A stretch of 46,658 nucleotides of DNA from Candidatus Levyibacteriota bacterium (GTDB taxonomy: Bacteria; Patescibacteriota; Microgenomatia; Levybacterales; UBA12049): contig OY970292.1 in the NCBI GenBank assembly GCA_963716145.1, forward strand, positions 1,095,404 through 1,142,061, given 5' to 3'. The notes below the pieces were generated by a model. The model was not told the origin of the DNA and did not search any database. It saw nothing but the letters and a program-made list of their open reading frames with translations. Both the position numbers and the translations under genes were made by a program. Below, one piece after another: positions 1,141 to 43,246 of this stretch (its first letter is position 1; every line of letters begins with the position of its first letter).

Positions 1141-4595
<3,455 letters not shown>

Positions 4596-4608
4596 AAAAA
4601 GTTTAACT

Positions 4609-8433
<3,825 letters not shown>

Positions 8434-8521
8434 TTCAGAGTTTAGAGTTCAGAATTAAGAATTAAGTTTTTAAATAATACTTAAAAATTCTAAATTCATA
8501 ATTATAGATTCTGAATTTAAA
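8434..8521. repeat. Two opposed 7-nt-period arrays in the rpoC-rpsL spacer
   Basis: Array 1 at 8434-8468: TTCAGAG TTTAGAG TTCAGAA TTAAGAA TTAAGTT. Array 2 at 8487-8521: ATTCTAA ATTCATA ATTATAG ATTCTGA ATTTAAA. The second is roughly the reverse complement of the first (about 24/31 by hand). Confidence 0.8.
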
Positions 8522-8523
8522 TA

Positions 8524-8532
8524 TGTTATAAT
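8524..8532 (+). promoter_or_regulatory. Extended -10 promoter element for rpsL-rpsG
   Basis: TGtTATAAT at 8524-8532 matches TGnTATAAT exactly. An AGAGGA Shine-Dalgarno lies at 8544-8549 and the ATG at 8559. Confidence 0.5.
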
Positions 8533-12787: not shown

Positions 12788-12795
12788 ATGCGAAA

Positions 12796-12889
12796 ATTTC
12801 TAATTTCTAATTTCTAATTTCAAAAGATTAAACTTAGCCTTAAAATAATTAGAAATTTGATATTTGAAATTGGTATTTATTTGAAATTT
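12796..12889. repeat. Opposed 7-nt-period arrays in the divergent promoter region
   Basis: (ATTTCTA)x3 plus ATTTCAA at 12796-12823. TTAGAAA TTTGATA TTTGAAA TTGGTAT TTATTTG at 12849-12883 is in the opposite orientation (AATTAGAAATT versus AATTTCTAATT). Confidence 0.8.
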
Positions 12890-14455: not shown

Positions 14456-15006
14456 TAAAAGAAATATATTTTGTATGGTGGTTTTTTGCTCCGGCCGGAA
14501 TAGCCAACATTGCAGCTTTCTTTTCAGGTAAAATTCCCCTCCTTAAATCCTATTCTTACCCAATTGATTTCAACGTCAAAGTTAGAGGTAGAAGAATTTT
14601 TGGATCCAATAAAACAATGCGCGGATTAATTTTTGGAATAATTTCGGCAATAGCCATTGTTTACTTGCAAGTATTTTTATTCAATCAATTTGCTTTCATT
14701 AAAAAAATTATCCCTTTGGATTACAATTCGATAAACCCAATTCTTCTTGGTGGTCTTGCAGGTTTTGGTGCTCTATTTGGTGATGCGCTTAAAAGTTTTT
14801 TTAAACGCCAAATAGGAGTAGAACCGGGAAGGAGTTGGTTTCCTTTTGATCAGATCGATTATATCCTGGGAGGAATATTATTCACCTCATTCTATATAAA
14901 CTTAAGCAGGGGAGAATATGTTACACTGCTTTGGGTTTGGTTTTTACTTCACCCTCTAACTACATTGCTGGGATATGTCTTCAAACTCAAAGACAGCCCG
15001 CTTTAG
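14452..15006 (+). CDS. CDP-archaeol synthase (CarS, DUF46) family CTP-transferase homologue
   Basis: PAGIANIAA...GSNKTMRGLIFG...GDALKSFFKRQIGVEPGRSWFPFDQIDYILG matches the CarS pattern (G-x-KT-x-RG, GD...SF-KR, DQ-D). It overlaps the lipid kinase stop by 4 nt (ATGA). Confidence 0.7.
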   Translation: MIKEIYFVWWFFAPAGIANIAAFFSGKIPLLKSYSYPIDFNVKVRGRRIFGSNKTMRGLIFGIISAIAIVYLQVFLFNQFAFIKKIIPLDYNSINPILLGGLAGFGALFGDALKSFFKRQIGVEPGRSWFPFDQIDYILGGILFTSFYINLSRGEYVTLLWVWFLLHPLTTLLGYVFKLKDSPL

Positions 15007-15035
15007 TATAAAGTATTAAGAAGTAAGTATAAAGT
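15007..15035. repeat. 7-nt-period array, 5' arm flanking the four-helix-bundle gene
   Basis: TATAAAG TATTAAG AAGTAAG TATAAAGT fills the whole gap between TAG (15004-15006) and ATG (15036). Confidence 0.8.
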
Positions 15036-15410
15036 ATGAACGGATCTAAAATAAAATCTTTTACAGATCTCATTACTTGGCAAAAAGCACATGCATTAGT
15101 GCTTATTATATACAAATTTACAAACGCATTCCCTAGAACAGAGACTTATTCATTAATTGATCAAATGAGAAGATCAGCTATTTCAATAACTAGTAATATT
15201 GCGGAGGGATTTTCTAGAAAAAGTAAAAAAGAAAAAATGCAATTTTATTATATGGCCCTTGGATCTACTACAGAGCTTCATAGCCAATTGATATTGTCAA
15301 AAGACTTGGGATATTTAAAGCAAGCAGAATTTTATGGAGTTATAGAAAAAATAGTTGAAGTAAATAAATTAATAAATAGTTTAATTAAGAGTTCTCAAAG
15401 TTATACTTAA
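15036..15410 (+). CDS. Four-helix-bundle protein (23S rRNA intervening-sequence protein / Avd-like family)
   Basis: FTDLITWQKAHALVLIIYKFTNAFPRTETYSLIDQMRRSAISITSNIAEGFSR...ALGSTTELHSQLILSKDLGYL is the typical family signature; 124 aa. Confidence 0.85.
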   Translation: MNGSKIKSFTDLITWQKAHALVLIIYKFTNAFPRTETYSLIDQMRRSAISITSNIAEGFSRKSKKEKMQFYYMALGSTTELHSQLILSKDLGYLKQAEFYGVIEKIVEVNKLINSLIKSSQSYT

Positions 15411-15440
15411 TACATACTACTTTATACTTAATACTTTATC
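15399..15440. repeat. 7-nt-period array, 3' arm flanking the four-helix-bundle gene
   Basis: TACTTAA TACATAC TACTTTA TACTTAA TACTTTA. ACTTTATACTTAATACTTTAT is the reverse complement of the 5' arm apart from a 7-nt gap. Confidence 0.8.
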
Positions 15441-16706: not shown

Positions 16707-16728
16707 GTTTATTTAATAGAATCAGGAA

Positions 16729-18753
16729 TCATGAATTAGGGATTGTTTTTTTAAATTTTAGATAGATTAATCCCGTGAGTATTATAACTAAAGAAGTTAA
16801 ACTTATTATAACACCAATATCGACCCATTTTTGAGGCGTGTAATAAACTTCAAAGCTGTAATTTCCGGTCTTTGGTAAAATAAAACTATTAAACCCTTCG
16901 TAGTTCTTGGTTCTTGGTTCTTGGTTCTTGGTTCCACGAAGACTCCATCCAGGATCATAACCTTCAGCAAATACTAAAGTGCTATTTTTTTGTGCATTTT
17001 TTAAATTAACAATATATTTTGTTGGATTAATATATTTATAGTCTATTTTCATGTTTGGTTGGGGGCTCCAGAAGTGATCTTTGGGATCAGTAACTTCATA
17101 AACCCCGATCCTACCAAATCCATCAATTCTCTTTAGCCAAGGGATAGAATTTATTTCTTTTAATGTTTCTAGATATGATTTTTCATCGTACTTTCTATCC
17201 GTGAGGAAAATTTCCCCCATGCTGTCGTAAGGAACAATTATATATTTAACAGATGCTTCTTGTAGCACCTTTAAGGTTTCCCCTTTTTTTAATATTGCTA
17301 TATCTTCTTTGGGTGAATTTAATTTGAATAAGTCATTTGCAGGAATTGATGGATGATTATTTGAAAAGAAAGCAAACCTTTGTATTTGCGGGATCCAGAT
17401 CGTTCTATAAAACTTTTTATCTGAGGAAATAAATTTTTCTAATTTTATATATTCATTGGGAATTTGTACAGATTTAAATGTTCCCCCGAGTTCGCCAAGT
17501 AGGGCAGGGGAAGTAAGAAGTAAGAAGTAAGAGGTAAGAAGTAAGATGAAAAGATTTTGAAATTTGAAATTTGAAATTTGAAATTTTTGTTGAACCTTCA
17601 ACCAATTATATATTTGGGAAATGCTGTAGGGAATTAGTATTGAATAAGAAATGGCAATCAACGTATACCATTTTGTTGGATCTCTGAACATTAAGAAGCC
17701 TGGAACATGTTCAAACAGCCATAGATATAAGCCGCCAAATGGCTCCTGAGCTCCTTTTGCTAGAAAAGCACCTATCAGGCCCAAGATGGCAAAATACAAT
17801 AAATTGTTTTTGGTTCTCTGGTCTTTGGTTTTAGTAATAAAAAAAAGACTGCTAAATGCTAGAATTGGTAGAGTTAAAAATTCAGGTTTCATGAAATATG
17901 TTTTACCAAAAATATTCTCAGGCCAGTTGGGATGTAAAAGAGAAATTGTATTTTCGAGCTTTGCAAAACTGAAAAATTTTACAGCATCAATTGAGGAGTA
18001 AGCAGAACCCAGTTTTTTAATAGGATTTTGATTAACTAAAACTGTCGGTAAAATCCAAAAGAAGTTAAGAAGTACTAAGGTAGCTAATGGGGTTAGCAGC
18101 GATAAAATATATTTTAATGGCTTTCTAAATTGCTTGGTTATGAAGAAATAAATTATAAGCGCGGTTATCGTAATGTATAAAAACCGGATATCAAAAATAG
18201 CCTCAATACTTAAAGCTAATCCTAAGGATAATAATTTTTTAAATTCTATTTCGTTAGAGTCAAAAATATCAATAAAAATACTTAGTATCAAAGGAGAAAG
18301 AGCATAAGCCATCGCCACTCCTAATATCTGTCCACCTCCTATAACCATCAGGATATATATGTTAAATGTGTAAATAAAAGCCGCCAAGAGAGAAAAATCG
18401 TTTTTCGGCATTATTTTTTTATAAAGTGTGATTGATGAATAAATAGAAATAATTAGCAGTGGGAATAAATAATATATTCTTTCAATAACGCTCCAATGCA
18501 GGCCCAAGAATTCGCCTAAGAAAGTTATGGGAATACCTATGTTAAAAAATATCCATAACAAGGGAGCTGAAAATGCTCCCATACCCATCCCCAAATTCAT
18601 ATCCCATGCATAAAGAGGAAATGAATAGAGGGGATACATTGATTTATAATAAGGCCAGAAATCACCTCCTGTAATAACTCCAGGCAAAAACCACGGACTA
18701 TATACAACATAGATAATGAGTAAAGAAATAAAGTAATAAATTTTTGTTTTCAT
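16729..18753 (-). CDS. Large polytopic membrane protein, GT-C-like glycosyltransferase candidate, with C-terminal extracytoplasmic domain and terminal TM
   Basis: 674 aa. About 12 or more hydrophobic helices are followed by a soluble ~250-aa domain and a final TM. The N-terminal GGDFWPYY loop resembles the acidic first loop of GT-C enzymes. Architecture-based call. Confidence 0.4.
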   Translation of the reverse strand: MKTKIYYFISLLIIYVVYSPWFLPGVITGGDFWPYYKSMYPLYSFPLYAWDMNLGMGMGAFSAPLLWIFFNIGIPITFLGEFLGLHWSVIERIYYLFPLLIISIYSSITLYKKIMPKNDFSLLAAFIYTFNIYILMVIGGGQILGVAMAYALSPLILSIFIDIFDSNEIEFKKLLSLGLALSIEAIFDIRFLYITITALIIYFFITKQFRKPLKYILSLLTPLATLVLLNFFWILPTVLVNQNPIKKLGSAYSSIDAVKFFSFAKLENTISLLHPNWPENIFGKTYFMKPEFLTLPILAFSSLFFITKTKDQRTKNNLLYFAILGLIGAFLAKGAQEPFGGLYLWLFEHVPGFLMFRDPTKWYTLIAISYSILIPYSISQIYNWLKVQQKFQISNFKFQNLFILLLTSYFLLLTSPALLGELGGTFKSVQIPNEYIKLEKFISSDKKFYRTIWIPQIQRFAFFSNNHPSIPANDLFKLNSPKEDIAILKKGETLKVLQEASVKYIIVPYDSMGEIFLTDRKYDEKSYLETLKEINSIPWLKRIDGFGRIGVYEVTDPKDHFWSPQPNMKIDYKYINPTKYIVNLKNAQKNSTLVFAEGYDPGWSLRGTKNQEPRTKNYEGFNSFILPKTGNYSFEVYYTPQKWVDIGVIISLTSLVIILTGLIYLKFKKTIPNS
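16903..16937. repeat. (GTTCTTG)x4 heptad array inside a CDS
   Basis: GTTCTTG x4 then GTTCCAC. On the coding strand it gives ...NQEPRTKNYEGF. Confidence 0.9.
17511..17584. repeat. (AAGTAAG)x5 and (TTGAAAT)x4 heptad arrays inside a CDS
   Basis: 17511-17545: AAGTAAG x5 (one AGGTAAG). 17557-17584: TTGAAAT x4. They encode ...KFQISNFKFQNLFILLLTSYFLLLTS... in the minus-strand ORF. Confidence 0.9.
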
Positions 18754-29805: not shown

Positions 29806-31026
29806 TCAATGTTGCAATATAACCTTTTTTATGAGCCTAATGCTTTCTTTTACCGAATTTTCCCAAGTAGCAGTCTTTACTGCTTTCAATCCGTTTTCCT
29901 GAAGGTTTTTATACTTGGATTTATCATTTATGAGTTTTACCGCCTCAGAATACAAACTTTGTGGAGTATTCTTATCAAGAATAATGCCCGTCACATTGTC
30001 TTGAACAGTATCGCGCAGTCCTGGAACATTATACACAATTGACGGAGTCTTTTGGGAGGCTGCTTCATGAACTGTTAATCCCCATCCTTCGTGAACGGAA
30101 GGAATAAGCAATATATGCGCTTTTGCCAATAATTCATATTTTCTTTCCTGATTTACAAACCCAAAAAACTTAACTGAAGAAGACAGATTGTATTTTTGTA
30201 TTTTTGATTTAACAGATCCAATAATTTCGTCATCTCCCGATCCCACAATCCACAGGACGGGTTCTTGGTTCTTGGTTCTTGGTTCTTTGGTCTTGGTTCT
30301 TGGCTCTTTGGAGCTACCAGGATCTAAGACCTTTGAGCTAAGATCTTTCTTAATCAAGGAGAATGCTTCAATGGCATCATAGATTCCTTTTTGTTTATTA
30401 AGTCTTGCAAGATAGATAAAAGTAGGATTTTTTTCTTTAGGATATTTTTTAAGACTTTTTGGAATATTTATTCCCATTTTTAATACAGTTATTTGGCTCG
30501 GATTTATCCCTTCTTTAATTAAATCTTTTTTGGTTGACTCAGAAATAGTCATTGTCGGCACGTTTCTGTAAATACGCAAATATATTTTTTCAATTGCTCT
30601 AAAAATAAGTGCAACCGGATAGGGGAACAATCTGAAAAATAATTTGCTTGCAGTCTCACAGATCAGAGCGATAGTCTTTTTGCGGGCATAAATTGCGCTG
30701 AAAAATGGAAACCAGTGCACCTCATCGATGATGATGTCTATATTTTTTTTGTTTTTTAAATAATAAAAAAAAGCCAAAAAATGAACATTCCACCAATCTC
30801 CTCGTCTTATAAACTGAACACTGTCAATAGTCTCCTTTTTTTTTGCTCCCGAGAACATTGAACTAAAAACCAAGACCTCGTACCCTGCATTGGTCCATCC
30901 CTTAGCTAATTCATGAGTAAGAATTTCAGCACCTCCTCCTGCCGGATTTTTTATATCCCGCCAGTTCAATATTAAAATCCGAACGATTTTAGTATTGAAG
31001 TTCTTGGTTCTTGGTTCATGGTTCAT
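29806..31026 (-). CDS. GT4 family glycosyltransferase carrying heptad-array-derived N-terminus and interdomain insert
   Basis: Core ILILNWRDIKNPAGGGAE...SVHEGWGLTVHEAASQKTPSIVYNVPGLRD. The N-terminus MNHEPRTKN and the linker SSKEPRTKTKEPRTKNQEP are encoded by GTTCTTG-type arrays. Confidence 0.85.
   Translation of the reverse strand: MNHEPRTKNFNTKIVRILILNWRDIKNPAGGGAEILTHELAKGWTNAGYEVLVFSSMFSGAKKKETIDSVQFIRRGDWWNVHFLAFFYYLKNKKNIDIIIDEVHWFPFFSAIYARKKTIALICETASKLFFRLFPYPVALIFRAIEKIYLRIYRNVPTMTISESTKKDLIKEGINPSQITVLKMGINIPKSLKKYPKEKNPTFIYLARLNKQKGIYDAIEAFSLIKKDLSSKVLDPGSSKEPRTKTKEPRTKNQEPVLWIVGSGDDEIIGSVKSKIQKYNLSSSVKFFGFVNQERKYELLAKAHILLIPSVHEGWGLTVHEAASQKTPSIVYNVPGLRDTVQDNVTGIILDKNTPQSLYSEAVKLINDKSKYKNLQENGLKAVKTATWENSVKESIRLIKKVILQH
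30261..30311. repeat. Seven-copy GTTCTTG-type heptad array inside the GT4 interdomain linker
   Basis: GTTCTTG x3, GTTCTTT, GGTCTTG, GTTCTTG, GCTCTTT. Confidence 0.9.
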
Positions 31027-31072
31027 AATTGCTTGAGCGTATTCCTAAGACCCAAGATCAAAGATCTACGAC
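31000..31072. repeat. Opposed heptad arrays with only a 17-nt centre (empty version of the four-helix-bundle cassette site)
   Basis: 31000-31027: GTTCTTG GTTCTTG GTTCATG GTTCATA, which contains the GT4 start codon. 31045-31072: CTAAGAC CCAAGAT CAAAGAT CTACGAC, which contains the GT2 stop codon. The second arm uses the same four words as 33517-33544. Confidence 0.8.
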
Positions 31073-31842
31073 CTTTTTTGTTTATTATAATATCTTAGGA
31101 TTTTTAATCTGTAGAATACCGCTCCCGTATCCCAAAGCATCAGAAAAATAACTTTCCACATAGCATTTCTATTGATTGTATTTGTTTTGAATTTTAAACG
31201 GATAGGGGCTTCATAAATTTTTTTATAGCCGAGAAGATAGGACACAGCCAATATCTCAATATCAAAAGCGTAAGCTTTCACCAATAATCTCGGAAGAACA
31301 TCTCTGACAACTTTTCTTTTGAAAAATTTAAGTCCTACCTGTGTGTCTCTTACTTTAAAACCAAATAATGCTTTGGTTACCTGCCGATACCCCCAAGATA
31401 AAATTTTTCTATACAAAGGATAATTAACTTTGGATACCGGGTGCAGTTTGGAGCCTACAATTATATCCGCGTCGTACCACTCCATATGGTTAAGAAGCAT
31501 ATTAAAACCGGCCGGATGAATATCCATCCCTGCATCCATAAATCCTATTATGTCGCCTTTTGCTTTTAACATACCAATCCGTACCGCATGCCCTTTTCCT
31601 TGATTTTCTTCATAAGAAATAATCTTTACATTTTTTCCGGCCCTAAGCTTTTTGATGCCGGTTAATTTCTTAAGTGTGTCATCAACCAACCCGTCAATCA
31701 CTACGATTATTTCATATTTGTAGTTCAGGGTATCTAGTGAGCTTGTGATATTTTTAATATCTTGGATAATTGTCTTTTCTTGCTTATATGATGGTACAAC
31801 TACTGAGAGAAGGCGTATTTTAGAGCTTTTCCTTGCTGCCAT
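31066..31842 (-). CDS. GT2 family glycosyltransferase
   Basis: MAARKSSKIRLLSVVVPSYKQEKTI...VVIDGLVDDT...GFMDAGMD. The start is chosen at the second ATG (31842). Confidence 0.8.
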   Translation of the reverse strand: MAARKSSKIRLLSVVVPSYKQEKTIIQDIKNITSSLDTLNYKYEIIVVIDGLVDDTLKKLTGIKKLRAGKNVKIISYEENQGKGHAVRIGMLKAKGDIIGFMDAGMDIHPAGFNMLLNHMEWYDADIIVGSKLHPVSKVNYPLYRKILSWGYRQVTKALFGFKVRDTQVGLKFFKRKVVRDVLPRLLVKAYAFDIEILAVSYLLGYKKIYEAPIRLKFKTNTINRNAMWKVIFLMLWDTGAVFYRLKILRYYNKQKRS

Positions 31843-33088
31843 ACAGGTAGTATAACAAAAGACTGAGCACAAGTAAAAATGTAATAGCGCAAGAGATAAG
31901 GATAATCTGCATAAATGTTTGATGGTAAAAAGTAATAAGAATTATTTGTAAAATAGCACCCAAAAGAATCGGAATATAAACATTAGTTTTTTTAATAGAA
32001 AGATAGAAATTGGAAATCATAAAAAGTAAACAGTAAATAGATATAAATAGTGCAAAAAAACCTAGAATTGGAGCAACAGACAAATACTCTGTTTTTTTGA
32101 GAAAAAATAATATAGAAAACGCGGGAAAAAGATAATAAAAAATTGTTACGATTATACAAGGGCACAAAACAAGGAGTAGGGAGAGTTTAAAGGTGTTATT
32201 AAAATTTTCGTTCCTGCTGTGTTTTTGAACAATCACCGGAAACATGACTCCGATGATTGGTACTGTTATAAAAAATATAACTCTGCCCATAAGCGATAAT
32301 CCTGCATAGATTCCAGCAGACTTGGGATCAAAAAAATGCTTTACTAAGATCACATCTGTTGAGATAAATGAAGTTAAACCAAGCAAGGTCAGAGCTGATG
32401 GAATACCGTAGTTAAAAAGTTCTCTTGTATTTATGCTGGACTGCGCAATCAACTTTTTATTAAAAATAAATCTAATTGGCAGGAAACTTAAAATATACAA
32501 AATTAATGAGCCAATTATTATTGCTGAGATAGCTCCTGTCACTGAAAAACCCATAAATACAAATGCTACGCCAAGTGTTAGTTTTGCCAGAGCTCCAATA
32601 AAATTTAGAAAAACCTGGTAACCAAATGCTAACTTTGCCTGAAGCAATGCCAAATTTATTATTTGGACAAATGACAAAAATATCACAAAATTCGCCAGTA
32701 ACAGGATGATTTTATTTTCAATATGAAAAAAGCTTGCTAAATTGGGAGTAAAATAGAGAAAAAGTAGAAATATAAATAGTCCTGATGAGGCGAAGAATTT
32801 AAATATTTTTATATAAAATCCTCTTATTTCGGCAAGTTTTCCTTTTGCAAAATATTCTCCCGAAAAACTTACAACCAAAGGAGTTAATGCGCTTAATATC
32901 AGAGAAGGAAATCCAATTAAAGAAGTAATACTTGCCAAAGTACCATAGTCAGCAACTGTCAAATTACGGCTCATAAATAAGTTAAAGAGGAAATTGAAAA
33001 AATTGGCTATCAATCCACCAATTACCACGATACTTGATCCGTAGATAAGAGGGTGCCGGGCTTGAGTTTTTAAAGTTGTAAAGTTCAT
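31820..33088 (-). CDS. Wzx/MOP-superfamily oligosaccharide flippase
   Basis: 422 aa, about 12 TM helices, with the typical polysaccharide-biosynthesis-protein N-terminus (...GSSIVVIGGLIANFFNFLFNLFMSRNLTVADYG). Confidence 0.7.
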   Translation of the reverse strand: MNFTTLKTQARHPLIYGSSIVVIGGLIANFFNFLFNLFMSRNLTVADYGTLASITSLIGFPSLILSALTPLVVSFSGEYFAKGKLAEIRGFYIKIFKFFASSGLFIFLLFLYFTPNLASFFHIENKIILLLANFVIFLSFVQIINLALLQAKLAFGYQVFLNFIGALAKLTLGVAFVFMGFSVTGAISAIIIGSLILYILSFLPIRFIFNKKLIAQSSINTRELFNYGIPSALTLLGLTSFISTDVILVKHFFDPKSAGIYAGLSLMGRVIFFITVPIIGVMFPVIVQKHSRNENFNNTFKLSLLLVLCPCIIVTIFYYLFPAFSILFFLKKTEYLSVAPILGFFALFISIYCLLFMISNFYLSIKKTNVYIPILLGAILQIILITFYHQTFMQIILISCAITFLLVLSLLLYYLYGSKEKL

Positions 33089-33091
33089 AGA

Positions 33092-33493
33092 TTAGGTCTT
33101 GGTTTCTAGGTCTTGGTTTCTAGGTCTTTGGTCTATTGTATTTTTTTTAAGATAAGTAATTAGTCCATTTATTAGTCTGCCTGTTTTATTTGCTTGTTCC
33201 ATTAGTTCTTGATATTTTTGTTCGTCAATAAAATCTAAGTCTCTAGCCAATAATAAATGATATTTAGTTTCCTCCAAGGATCCTCTAGCTTGATAGCAAT
33301 ACTGAACATATTCTTTTCTATAAGCTCTCGCACTTCCTTCAACTAGGTTGGCTGCTACAGAACTTACAGAGCGGCATACTTGATCAATTAATCTAAATTT
33401 TTCATCATTTGGAAATATATTTACAATTTTGTATATCATCAACACTAGCTTATGCGCCTCTTTCCATGCTTCCAGCTTTTCAAAATTATTCAT
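33092..33493 (-). CDS. Four-helix-bundle protein (23S rRNA intervening-sequence protein / Avd-like family), second copy
   Basis: MNNFEKLEAWKEAHKLVLMIYKIVNIFPNDEKFRLIDQVCRSVSSVAANLVEGSAR...ARGSLEETKYHLLLARDLDFI. The C-terminal tail DQRPRNQDLETKT is encoded by the heptad array. The ORF track starts at upstream TTG 33511. Confidence 0.85.
   Translation of the reverse strand: MNNFEKLEAWKEAHKLVLMIYKIVNIFPNDEKFRLIDQVCRSVSSVAANLVEGSARAYRKEYVQYCYQARGSLEETKYHLLLARDLDFIDEQKYQELMEQANKTGRLINGLITYLKKNTIDQRPRNQDLETKT
33095..33136. repeat. Heptad array (14-nt unit GGTCTTG GTTTCTA x2.5), 3' arm of the second four-helix-bundle cassette
   Basis: GGTCTTG GTTTCTA GGTCTTG GTTTCTA GGTCTTT GGTCTAT. Confidence 0.85.
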
Positions 33494-33516
33494 TATTTTG
33501 TAATTATTCAAAAAAA

Positions 33517-33547
33517 CAAAGAACTAAGATCTACAATCCAAGAACTC
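33517..33547. repeat. Heptad array in opposite orientation, 5' arm of the second four-helix-bundle cassette
   Basis: CAAAGAA CTAAGAT CTACAAT CCAAGAA. Its reverse complement matches 33095-33120 at about 19/26. It contains the stop codon of the upstream GT4 gene. Confidence 0.8.
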
Positions 33548-34616
33548 GCTGATACGTTTTTATCGTATCAGCGGCTGTTTTCTTCCACGTAAATTTTTGA
33601 GCTTGTTCGAGTCCTTTTTCCGAGAGCCGCGTTCGCAGTTTGGAATCTTCAAAAACTTCAGCAATACCATCAGCAATGCTTTTTATATCGTACGCGTCTA
33701 TGTAGAATGCTGCATCTCCAGCTACTTCGCGAATAGATCCTTCTTTGGAAGTTACAACCGGGCAGCCGGATTGCATTGCTTCAAGAATTGGCAAACCAAA
33801 GCCTTCATACAGGCTTGGCATTGCAAAGACAGTTGCAAGATTATAAAGAGTAATTAAATCCTCAGTGGGAACAAAACCCAATGCGCGCGTATTGGTATTT
33901 TCTGAAATTAGTTTTTGCGCTTCTACCAAATCCTGATTCCAGGGATTTTTCTTATCAAAATTGGTCTCGGTTAAAGTTTTTCCAACCATCACTAAGGGAG
34001 CATTTATTTCATTTGCCGCTCGGATAAGTCTTGGAAGGTTTTTGTTCCAAGTTGCGTCACCAACGTACAGGACAAATTTGGGGGGAAGTTTGTATTTGGT
34101 TTTTAGTTCTTGGATCTTAGTTTTTGGGCGACCGTTCTCCGAAGATCTATGATCTAAAACCTGGAATTCTTTTCCTGCTGCAAGATATACTACATCAATT
34201 TTATCGGCATTGATCTTTGCGTATTTGCTAATGTCTTTTTTTGATGATTCCGAATCAGTCAGAATCCGGTCAGATCCTGAAAGATTGAGCTTTTGAATCT
34301 GCCACTTAATTTTGCCTTTAAAGCCCGATGGGAAATGGTCTGGAAATACCAGAGGAGTTAGGTCGTGTACCGTAACAACTTTTTTATATTTTTCAAAAAA
34401 GGGGAGTGTCAAAAAAAACGGTTCAAAATAGGGATAGTGAATTAATTCAACTGATTTATCAAGTTGCCCCCCACTCGAAAAGAAAATATACTCATTCTCA
34501 GGAAAAAATTCTAAAAGCGCATTCTTGAGATTTTGCAGATAAAAGCCTGTTCCGCGCACTCTGTGACTTAAGATTCTATTATCGTTAAGCGGTGATACAT
34601 CTATAGCTATTTTCAT
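33531..34616 (-). CDS. GT4 family glycosyltransferase
   Basis: FAMPSLYEGFGLPILEAMQSGCPVVTS (EX7E region); 361 aa. A degenerate heptad-like stretch at about 34088-34135 encodes SENGRPKTKIQELKTK. Confidence 0.85.
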   Translation of the reverse strand: MKIAIDVSPLNDNRILSHRVRGTGFYLQNLKNALLEFFPENEYIFFSSGGQLDKSVELIHYPYFEPFFLTLPFFEKYKKVVTVHDLTPLVFPDHFPSGFKGKIKWQIQKLNLSGSDRILTDSESSKKDISKYAKINADKIDVVYLAAGKEFQVLDHRSSENGRPKTKIQELKTKYKLPPKFVLYVGDATWNKNLPRLIRAANEINAPLVMVGKTLTETNFDKKNPWNQDLVEAQKLISENTNTRALGFVPTEDLITLYNLATVFAMPSLYEGFGLPILEAMQSGCPVVTSKEGSIREVAGDAAFYIDAYDIKSIADGIAEVFEDSKLRTRLSEKGLEQAQKFTWKKTAADTIKTYQRVLGL

Positions 34617-34673
34617 AAAAACTTAAATTATAAATGTAAAACTTATAAAGATCAACCATATGTTTTTTAAGTT

Positions 34674-41988: not shown

Positions 41989-42426
41989 TTATCGGGTTTT
42001 TATCTCTCTTTTGTTGTCTCCCAGATATTCAAAATATAAATTTATTCTTTTTTTTGGTAGGATTTTCTCAATCTTTTCCGGCCATTCTATGGCTACTATG
42101 TTTGATTTATCATTTAAAATTTCTTTAAGTCCCAATCCCTCAACGTCTTTTTCGCTCTCTATTCTATAAAGATCTATATGGTAAAAATTCTTGATTCTTG
42201 ATTCTTGCTTCTTAATTCTTATGTCATATTTCCGGACAATTATAAAAGTAGGTGAAATAATTTTGCTTTTGATTCCCAAACCCTTTGCAAATCCTTGAAC
42301 GAATGTTGTTTTACCGGATCCCAAATTTCCATATAGAGCAAGAGTCGATCCACTTTTTAGATTTTTTCCTAAATTAAATCCCAATTCCTGAGTCTCTGAA
42401 AATTTATTAGTTTTGTGGATTTGCAT
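41989..42426 (-). CDS. tsaE: tRNA threonylcarbamoyladenosine biosynthesis ATPase TsaE, with a heptad-array insert
   Basis: [24 protein letters not shown]...[10 protein letters not shown]...YHIDLYRI. The start is taken at MQIHKTNKF (42426). Confidence 0.85.
42187..42221. repeat. ATTCTTG-type heptad array inside tsaE
   Basis: ATTCTTG x3, CTTCTTA, ATTCTTA. It encodes [12 protein letters not shown] between the SPTF and HxDLYR motifs. Confidence 0.9.
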
Positions 42427-43246
42427 TATTATTTCTTCTAATTTTCCAGTAAACAAGTATACCACAAGACAGGATCAGAATTGAGCCTAATATTATGGCA
42501 ATAGGAACAAGGTTATTCTGCATAGAGCTTTTTATAAGTAATTTTTTACTTTTGCTTGGAGTGGGCGATAATCTTTTGGCAGCAGATGTAGTTCCAAGAA
42601 TCGAAGCGGATTTAGAGCTCAGATTAGCCGATTTTGTAGCAGCTTTTGTTGGGGACTTGGTGATTTTTGGCGTGGGGGAAGGGGTTGGAGTTTTTATCGC
42701 AGTTGGAGTAGGTATTTTGGTCGGAGTAGGTTCTTTTGTGGGAATGAGAGTAGGAGAGGGAGTTGGGGTTGGAGTAGGAGCAGGTCCGCTGTTGCTATTG
42801 CCCTTAGTTCCTTCAGCAAGTGCTTGAATTGTCCCCGTCCCATTAGGAGTTCTACCTATTGCAATATCTTCTCCGGGGTCATTGGTATATTCATATTGAT
42901 CCAAGATATTACCACTATTATCAAAAAGAACAACATGATCTCCCTCATTGTTAAGCATGGAACTTAATTCAATATATGGGTGTTGCGGATTTGTTTTTAT
43001 AAGGGTTGAAAGAATTTTTTTAGAGCTAGTACCACTATCATTGATAAAATCATTATCGTCGTCGATCCAATAATTTGAGATATCAATACTGTCCGGATTA
43101 TAAAATTCAACCCACTCTTTATTACCACTGCTTGGATGAACTATGAATTCATTTATAAGTATTTTATTTTCCGCGAAAGCAGGTTCGGGGAGCGCCAAAA
43201 AAACTAACACAGTAATTAAACTAATTTTCAGAGACTTCCTCATCAA
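42407..43246 (-). CDS. Lamin-tail-domain surface protein with Pro/Thr-rich stalk and C-terminal TM anchor
   Basis: Signal peptide, then [36 protein letters not shown] (LTD signature). PT-rich linker [28 protein letters not shown]... and a terminal TM. Confidence 0.75.

Follow-up and report, generated by a model that had tools for sequence, protein, structure and literature searches.

What is a 73-base hairpin built of seven-base repeats doing between two genes of a bacterial operon, where it seems to provide the end of one gene and the beginning of the next? The hairpin lies at 31000-31072 of a 46.7-kb stretch (the window, to whose positions all coordinates refer) of the 1.14-Mb contig OY970292.1 of a Candidatus Levyibacteriota bacterium, between the glycosyltransferase genes GT2 and GT4b, both on the minus strand. 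Our answer is that it is probably a form, devoid of an open reading frame (ORF), of a palindromic selfish cassette of the intervening sequence (IVS) type, living in operons and not in rRNA. The full cassette consists of a C-poor heptad array, a four-helix-bundle gene (IVP/S23p; PF05635, TIGR02436) and a G-poor heptad array, with the 3' array being roughly the reverse complement of the 5' array.

The hairpin consists of two inverted arrays of four heptad units each, and reading of the sequence confirms that, as described in the original prediction, they face each other across 17 nt. Specifically, in plus-strand coordinates, array 1 (31000-31027) reads GTTCTTG GTTCTTG GTTCATG GTTCAT(A), the 17-nt spacer (31028-31044) reads AATTGCTTGAGCGTATT and array 2 (31045-31072) reads CTAAGAC CCAAGAT CAAAGAT CTACGAC. 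In the sense of the genes, a C-poor 5' arm of TAG/TTG type (31045..31073, minus strand; GGTCGTAG ATCTTTG ATCTTGG GTCTTAGG), which has a Shine-Dalgarno-like AGGA relic at its end, is followed by a 17-nt loop (31028..31044, minus strand; AATACGCTCAAGCAATT) in the position that an IVP gene takes in the relative L001, and then by a G-poor 3' arm (31000..31026, minus strand; ATGAACC ATGAACC AAGAACC AAGAAC), whose translation is MNHEPRTKN. The arms are complementary at 21 of 30 aligned positions, with about two heptads per arm pairing well, and when 9314 windows of like geometry are ranked by complementarity, this pair of arms falls in the top 0.28%. Period 7 is the sole tandem period enriched in the window when lags 4-12 are compared: at a threshold of at least 18 of 21 lag-7 matches there are 8 arrays and none at any other lag, and at a looser cut-off (16/21) lag 7 gives 12 and no other lag more than 1. 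A chance origin of this palindrome is ruled out by this enrichment and by the complementarity rank.

When its RNA structure is predicted the hairpin does fold, if only modestly for a free-standing RNA on the gene strand (-16.5 kcal/mol, z -1.4), and somewhat more stably on the plus strand (-21.8 kcal/mol, z -2.0). Such modest stability, together with an intercistronic position, might be expected of a regulatory hairpin belonging to the host, be it an attenuator, a terminator or a processing site. We regard this explanation, even when pooled with that of a chance AT-rich palindrome, as very hard to credit, since no intrinsic terminator-like site was found in 30800-31300, an Rfam search of the window matched neither rRNA nor any other family, promoter-like matches occur at chance level, and an IVP gene stands between the orthologous arms of L001. 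Moreover, the arms share their repeat unit (hereafter dialect) and their words with a full cassette in the window (cassette 2, 33089-33550) and with a hairpin inside the coding sequence (CDS) of GT4b. The four words of one arm had been thought to recur, in a new order, in the cassette-2 arm at 33517-33544 (CAAAGAA CTAAGAT CTACAAT CCAAGAA), and this is correct for 6-mers (CAAAGA, CTAAGA, CTAC[G/A]A and CCAAGA are common to both), whereas the 7-mers are not identical. The TAG of the upstream gene falls, in either arm, within the CTAC word, which reads GTAG on the gene strand.

The same junction in relatives provides the evidence that identifies the hairpin, and the junction comes in three states: naive, with a hairpin alone, or with a hairpin and an IVP gene together. 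In L001, the closest relative, with a GT4b 71% identical to that of the window, the order is GT2 tail, arm GTTCATAGATCCTAGATCTTGGTTCTTTGTTCTTAGG, a 127-amino-acid PF05635 IVP gene, arm ATGATCCAAGATCCAAAATCCAAGATCCAAGATCCAAC and GT4b, with the end of the 5' arm making the AGGAG Shine-Dalgarno sequence of the IVP gene and the ATG of the 3' arm being the start of GT4b. The arms are orthologous to those of the window: the window 5' arm matches the L001 and L002 arms in its first word, G(T/G)TC(G/A)TAG, and its last, TCTTAGG, and the window and L001 have in common the ATGA(A/T)CC that begins the 3' arm. An occupied allele of the site is thus at hand. Hairpin-only alleles are found in L002/L003, where the operon is syntenic and a hairpin with a loop of about 35 nt sits at the GT2/GT4b junction with no IVP gene, and in L069 and L161. 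Naive junctions have no heptads, and in these (L004, L005, L011, L013, L017, L160 and L162) the GT2 stop overlaps or abuts the GT4b ATG in the forms ATGA, TGATG or TAGATG; in L007, L010, L014 and L016 the junction is also heptad-free and has a short ordinary spacer. The original prediction had taken the hairpin for a cassette site without its four-helix-bundle gene, which stands in the sense of an ORF-less cassette form but not in that of an empty site, as a truly empty site has no hairpin. It is because naive junctions lack any hairpin that we read it as an ORF-less cassette and not as an unoccupied target.

Could the hairpin nevertheless have come first, as a landing pad that was never occupied here, with IVP genes inserting into hairpin loops and L001 gaining its gene later? 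We consider this unlikely, although several observations are compatible with it. The nearest hairpin-bearing outgroups in a single-protein neighbour-joining (NJ) tree (L071, L002 and L069) also have no IVP gene at this junction, known IVSs sit in hairpin loops, at rRNA helices 25 and 45 (PMC4990558), and the loop carries no IVP remnant: locally aligned with the L001 and cassette-2 interiors, the loops of the window and of L002 did no better than shuffles, the sole exception being a weak match between L002 and cassette 2 (94 of 2000 shuffles). We dropped for this reason the idea that the 17-nt loop is the relic of a deleted IVP gene. However, the naive junctions have no hairpin, and therefore the arms themselves were inserted; furthermore, heptad arms accompany IVP genes across unrelated contexts and phyla, and are therefore part of the element. 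For the window and L001 taken as a pair, IVP loss in the former and gain in the latter are equally parsimonious, so that this comparison does not favour a landing pad. Nor is the NJ tree of GT4 fit for counting events, given that L160, whose operon is wholly naive, falls within the hairpin-bearing clade, and gain and loss counts from it were dropped.

For the genes on either side, the original prediction, that the arrays shape gene ends, appears to be well supported. GT2 (31066..31872, minus strand; PF00535, E 2.7e-21; likely true start at the ATG at 31842) has its final codons and its stop encoded by the 5' arm, and we confirm that its TAG (plus-strand positions 31066-31068, read on the minus strand) is supplied by CTACGAC, the first heptad of that arm. 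In all three hairpin-bearing genomes the GT2 stop is within the arm, with the heptad and the frame differing. GT4b (29806..31026, minus strand; PF00534) has 406 amino acids compared with about 365 in most homologues, the difference comprising a 14-amino-acid N-terminal extension that begins in the hairpin arm and an internal insert of about 27 amino acids. Its ATG (31024-31026, minus strand) lies within GTTCATG, the first heptad of the 3' arm, from which the N-terminus reads MNHEPRTKNFNTKIVRILILNWRD, opening with MNHEPRTKN; another ATG, 7 nt further downstream, is in a different frame.

The homologues of GT4b come from the candidate phyla radiation (CPR), mainly from Levybacteria, and 20 of the 24 aligned are about 365 amino acids long and start with M[KRN]ILILNWRD at the position equal to V15 of the window protein. 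The ancestral ATG is here a GTT codon, and no ATG, GTG or TTG was found between the array ATG and L20, leaving the array ATG as the only standard start. Four of the 24, the window included, are without the ancestral ATG and extended upstream; three of these extensions read as translated heptads (MNHEPRTKN, MIQDPKSKIQDP and MNQKQRSMNQEPRTK) and the fourth starts upstream of a relic hairpin. We infer from this comparison that the array ATG has probably replaced the lost ancestral ATG as the start of GT4b, consistent with the suggestion that the array supplies both this codon and the MNHEPRTKN that follows. The missing Shine-Dalgarno-like motif before the array ATG is uninformative, as such motifs occur upstream of only 7 of 50 window genes.

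A start codon within a tandem repeat raises the question of whether this could be a contingency locus, in which slippage by plus or minus one unit would switch GT4b off or move its start to the second ATG, with phase variation of a surface polysaccharide as the outcome. The repeat unit does not divide into whole codons, the two ATGs are 7 nt apart and in different frames, copy number varies between relatives, and heptanucleotide phase variation is known in Haemophilus, according to two reports (PMC8262952, PMC12721329). Against this, a phase-variable repeat would be a long uninterrupted tract of identical units, whereas at the start codon only two adjacent units are identical and the others are variants, and the array should therefore slip poorly. 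The sole length difference seen within GT4b lies in its internal insert, which among the aligned homologues is shared only with L001 and is there exactly 7 amino acids (3 heptads) shorter, a change that keeps the frame. Moreover, the arrays are inverted pairs that flank IVP genes across phyla, and they are found beside housekeeping genes (rpoC/rpsL and TsaE) as well. Both the slippage switch and the phase variation that it would produce thus appear decidedly improbable.

Under our preferred explanation, that the hairpin is an ORF-less cassette, an ancestor of the present Levybacteria (CPR) lineage would have received a cassette at the GT2/GT4b junction of its polysaccharide operon, where the two genes would until then have overlapped, stop on start. 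After insertion GT2 would terminate at the TAG of the 5' arm and GT4b, having lost its ancestral ATG, would start in the 3' arm, and the former GT2 tail (AAAATC...) and the array would now be read as the N-terminal extension of GT4b. L001 would have retained, or later acquired, the IVP gene between the orthologous arms, and the window has only a 17-nt loop in that place. The hairpin may be retained because its deletion would remove the GT4b start. We propose that a ribosome terminating at the 5'-arm TAG would open up the imperfect stem and expose the region of the ATG, and that the translational coupling of the ancestral overlap may in this way be preserved across the hairpin. If rRNA intervening sequences are a guide, the stem is also a possible substrate for RNase III.

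Some results weigh against this account. The stem on the mRNA strand is the weaker of the two predicted above (-16.5 kcal/mol, z -1.4) and leaves the ATG unsequestered in the predicted fold; the evidence for use of the array ATG is comparative; and with no IVP remnant in the loop, past occupancy of the window copy is not evident. The arm mismatches give no hint that an RNA stem has been selected for: they are mostly of transversion type and without an excess of G.U on the IVP-sense strand (52 vs 76; per-locus sign test on wobble asymmetry, p 0.47). Neither a direct repeat flanking the arms, as a target-site duplication would leave, in the sequences read, nor a transposase-like or reverse-transcriptase gene among the ORFs scanned, which were not every ORF of the window, could be found. 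The fold energies of the two strands are inconsistent from hairpin to hairpin, with the hairpin labelled A favouring sense, G favouring antisense and the others being equal.

Further evidence that the element is mobile comes from the operon as a whole, which has the order epimerase / GT4a / flippase / GT2 / GT4b. Across genomes the IVP gene occupies three different junctions of this same operon, namely GT4a/flippase in the window, GT2/GT4b in L001 and epimerase/GT4a in L069, L070 and L071, and in L161 it lies upstream of GT4a; ORF-less hairpins are found at other junctions in these genomes. Each genome uses one dialect of its own for both its cassette and its solo hairpins: CAAGAAC in the window, CAGTxxT in L071, CAAGATC in L001 and, in L069 and L161, a 9-nt CTTTAxAAA unit that is sometimes 8 nt long. 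The 9-nt repeats are at 4310-4790, 5836-5910 and 7929-8001 in L069 and at 3094-3691 in L161, where the entire 5' arm is itself tandemly amplified. This distribution points to junctions that were inserted into, or overwritten, more than once, and the recurrence at the same junctions together with the genome-specific dialects suggests active copying with a preference for gene junctions.

The window itself contains two occupied cassettes. In cassette 2, which shares the dialect of the hairpin (CAAGAAC/GTTCTTG), the 5' arm (33514..33550, minus strand; GAGTTCTTGG ATTGTAG ATCTTAG TTCTTTG) holds the TAG stop of GT4a (33531-33533), the IVP gene (33092..33493, minus strand) belongs to PF05635 and TIGR02436, and the 3' arm (33089..33135, minus strand; (CCAAGACCTAGAAA)n) encodes the C-terminal tail and stop of the IVP and abuts the flippase ATG (33086-33088). 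Its IVP matches PDB 2GSC, the structure of XCC0516 with five chains, at E 8e-15. Cassette 1 (15002..15440, plus strand) has an AGTATAA dialect unlike that of cassette 2 and the hairpin, with a 5' arm of (AGTATAA)n (15002-15040, plus strand), a four-helix-bundle IVP gene (15036..15410, plus strand; PF05635/TIGR02436) and a 3' arm of (TATACTT)n (15401-15440, plus strand); three stop codons and the IVP start fall within its arms, and it folds at -26 kcal/mol on either strand. Both cassettes have inverted heptad arms with about one mismatch per unit and fold at -24 to -28 kcal/mol, and the window IVP proteins score 118-127 bits against PF05635 (cut-off 33.8) and 111-121 bits against TIGR02436 (cut-off 24). 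The neighbours of the cassettes are glycosyltransferases, a flippase and lipid enzymes. An exact look-up of the GT4b and flippase proteins of the window gave no record. In a biocrust metagenome run, the only public run found to hold any of this sequence, a 231-nt contig matches 33126-33356, within the cassette-2 IVP gene, at 100% identity; the run holds 5% of the window words, made up of repeat tracts and these 231 nt, and covers neither the junction nor the surrounding operon.

Arrays are also widespread elsewhere in the window. Eleven of 18 contain or abut (within 3 nt) the stop or start of a neighbouring ORF and the other seven are in frame within a CDS, and the CAAGAAC dialect is present at no fewer than 5 sites across the 46.7 kb, which are alike only at the heptad level. 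One such site is the hairpin within GT4b (30254..30350, minus strand; DLSSKVLDPGSSKEPRTKTKEPRTKNQEP), in frame in an inter-domain loop and of CAAGAAC dialect, which folds much better as antisense RNA (-50.8 vs -27.9 kcal/mol); L069 and L002 have arrays of other dialects at the same inter-domain loop. GT4a (33531..34616, minus strand) contains an in-frame heptad hairpin at about 34095-34165 (GGTTTTAGATCATAGATCTTCGG ... CCCAAAAACTAAGATCCAAGAACTAAAAACC) that adds some 8 amino acids relative to GT4a of L160, L002, L069 and L071. Its C-terminal codons, just upstream of the cassette-2 5' arm, form a palindrome (33548-33575, minus strand; GCTGATACG...CGTATCAGC) also seen in L002 and L069 and not in the naive L160. 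At the junction of the epimerase and GT4a (34617-34673), which holds the IVP gene in L069 and L071, lies a degenerate hairpin, AAAACTT/AAGTTTT, close in its dialect to L069/L161, and the N-terminus of the window flippase, ATGAACTTTACAACTTTAAAAACTC, looks like a relic of that dialect.

Outside this operon, the tRNA-modification protein TsaE (41989..42465, minus strand) has a (CAAGAAT)n array (42185-42221) translated in a loop, and TsaE of L002 has an array at the same loop. A 674-amino-acid membrane protein without a Pfam match (ORF 16729..18753, minus strand) contains three in-frame heptad arrays and has its stop codon within a fourth; array coordinates around its gene are 16717-16746, 16893-16941 and 17502-17593 (minus strand), and one array peptide, TKNQEPRTKN, is the same as at the N-terminus of GT4b. 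A heptad hairpin between the 3' end of rpoC and rpsL (8429-8525, plus strand; -23 kcal/mol on that strand) has the rpoC stop at its first heptad, and heptad elements therefore also occupy core housekeeping operons. A hairpin between divergent genes (12788-12882) has its G-free arm first and its C-free arm second, which reverses both the polarity of the window's remaining hairpins and the compositional bias of the metagenomic loci described below.

Is this architecture peculiar to Levybacteria? A metagenome scan for IVP, seeded with three sequences as a five-sequence alignment was too divergent, gave 80 IVP loci at 45-67% identity and with a GC content of 29-62%, 69 of them with both flanks. 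Lag-7 arrays were present in 38 upstream and 41 downstream flanks of these 69 (48 loci in either, 31 in both), compared with 0-1 at lags 4-6 and 9-12 and 6-7 at lag 8. The 5' arms are C-poor (6% C; median 5.6 units) and the 3' arms G-poor (8% G; median 5.9 units), and duplexes between arms of the same locus have a median of -47 kcal/mol against -34 kcal/mol for arms paired across loci. Among the distinct heptad-flanked loci 29 of 44 are wedged between co-directional ORFs, and an array contains or abuts the upstream stop at 18 of 36 and, for 12 of 34, the ATG downstream; 13 of the 69 cassettes are directly upstream of a GT4 gene of the GT4b family. On plasmids, 7 of the 8 IVP genes that we checked are flanked by period-7 arrays (Trichormus variabilis, Nostoc punctiforme, Nostoc PCC 7120, Calothrix, Pseudanabaena, Riemerella and Azospirillum) and the eighth by period 8. 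The Pseudanabaena plasmid (L156) has its four-helix-bundle gene between cas6 and cas4, with AAAGCTA x14, and the Picosynechococcus plasmid (L158) has one between cmr2 and cmr3, with period-8 repeats. The IVP family has been reported in cas loci with a possible function there (PMC3936711), and this association may reflect cassette insertion rather than function.

In the library of literature that we searched, we found no paper that links heptamer repeats to S23p or four-helix-bundle genes, with the exception of a study of the Coxiella IVS. As a tentative and more speculative extension, IVP/S23p genes and inverted heptad arrays might constitute a single class of selfish cassette across phyla, in which a pentameric IVP would recognise its own dialect and cause the arms to be copied or kept at the junctions of genes, in hairpin loops and in rRNA helices. 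Recognition of a dialect by a pentamer is suggested because the arms are about 5-6 units long and the solved homologue is pentameric.

To our knowledge, IVP/S23p proteins have been without a function since 1993 and rRNA intervening sequences are without a known origin. This locus links these two questions with a third, the unexplained over-representation of heptameric repeats in the intergenic DNA of Xanthomonas and Nostoc (PMC4692102), as inverted heptad arrays surround members of one gene family in CPR, cyanobacteria, Bacteroidota and Proteobacteria. IVP genes sit between operon genes and not only in rRNA, ORF-less hairpins are left behind, and the junction can be compared in its naive, hairpin-only and occupied states. 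What they suggest is a selfish element that would rewrite the ends of host genes by donating a stop, replacing an ancestral start and having its repeats translated as extensions of N-termini and loops. If the single cross-phylum class suggested above is real, one mechanism would cover rRNA IVSs, the heptamers known as short tandemly repeated repetitive (STRR) sequences and the heptamer excess, and scattered 'cas-associated' or 'EPS-associated' four-helix-bundle genes, and it would routinely rewrite host stop codons, start codons and surface loops. Gene callers will mis-set starts and stops at such junctions, and guilt-by-association annotation of four-helix-bundle genes may reflect no more than tolerance of the cassette.

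How, then, does the element compare with known systems? The Rickettsia palindromic elements (RPEs), reportedly described by Ogata et al. in 2000, are likewise short selfish palindromes that lie in frame within genes at surface loops and are translated, and the inserts in GT4b, GT4a, TsaE and the membrane protein are RPE-like in this respect. However, RPEs are palindromes of about 100-150 bp of unique sequence, with no heptad periodicity and no ORF-bearing form, and have no taxonomic or sequence relation to the cassette. Repetitive extragenic palindromes and bacterial interspersed mosaic elements (REP/BIME), and the Correia elements or neisserial miniature insertion sequences (Correia/NEMIS), are bacterial intergenic palindromes resembling transposable elements of the miniature inverted-repeat type (MITEs). 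Like the hairpin, they are small imperfect palindromes at gene 3' ends and operon junctions, they are able to change mRNA processing or supply expression signals, and their non-autonomous copies outnumber any protein-coding partner. They differ in having terminal inverted repeats, target-site duplications (TA for Correia) or a RAYT or transposase partner, whereas the arms here are tandem arrays with a unit that differs by genome, the candidate partner is a four-helix-bundle protein, and no transposase-like ORF stands beside any cassette examined. The hairpin thus resembles RPEs and REPs in behaviour while lacking their defining features.

The heptanucleotide STRR sequences of cyanobacteria, reportedly described by Mazel et al. 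in 1990, are also tandem arrays near gene ends that vary in length and sequence between close relatives, and such arrays flank four-helix-bundle genes on the Nostoc, Trichormus, Calothrix and Pseudanabaena plasmids; STRRs were described without a linked gene or an inverted-pair architecture, and their link to IVP genes is an observation of the present analysis and not part of their published definition. With Avd, the protein of diversity-generating retroelements, a nucleic-acid-binding pentameric four-helix bundle, the IVP shares a related fold (match to PF22296, bAvd-like, at E 5e-8). It nevertheless remains below the Avd cut-offs of 40 and 80 bits (35-43 bits for NF033474 against a cut-off of 80), and no reverse transcriptase and no pair of template and variable repeats occurs beside any cassette examined.

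The rRNA IVSs, such as those of Leptospira and Coxiella burnetii, have the same cargo family (PF05635/TIGR02436), complementary termini pairing into a stem around the ORF, and forms with as well as without an ORF. Complementary termini likewise bracket the insert in the hairpin and in cassettes 1 and 2, and the gene is carried by the L001 copy and by both cassettes, of which the hairpin would be an ORF-less relative. The Coxiella 23S rRNA IVS, with an S23p ORF of the IVP family and a terminal inverted-repeat stem cut by RNase III, resembles them further in that tandem heptamers (GACAGAT, two to three copies, strain-variable) lie between the stem and the S23p ATG, beside the IVP gene, with the RNase III cut at the first heptamer repeat; the function and origin of IVSs are there called unclear, a mobile-element hypothesis dating from 1993 (PMC4990558). 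IVP ORFs also occur within CPR rRNA insertions (bioRxiv 10.1101/2024.02.27.582315). IVSs as a class lie inside rRNA genes, in 23S helices 25 and 45 or, in CPR, at 16S and 23S sites. Unlike these, the hairpin sits at a junction of protein genes, with sister copies inside CDSs, and its arms are heptad arrays throughout, with about one mismatch per unit in place of the near-perfect 28-bp stem of the IVS. The arms are, furthermore, probably translated, providing a stop and a start codon, and a putative RNase III cut would here fall in an mRNA.

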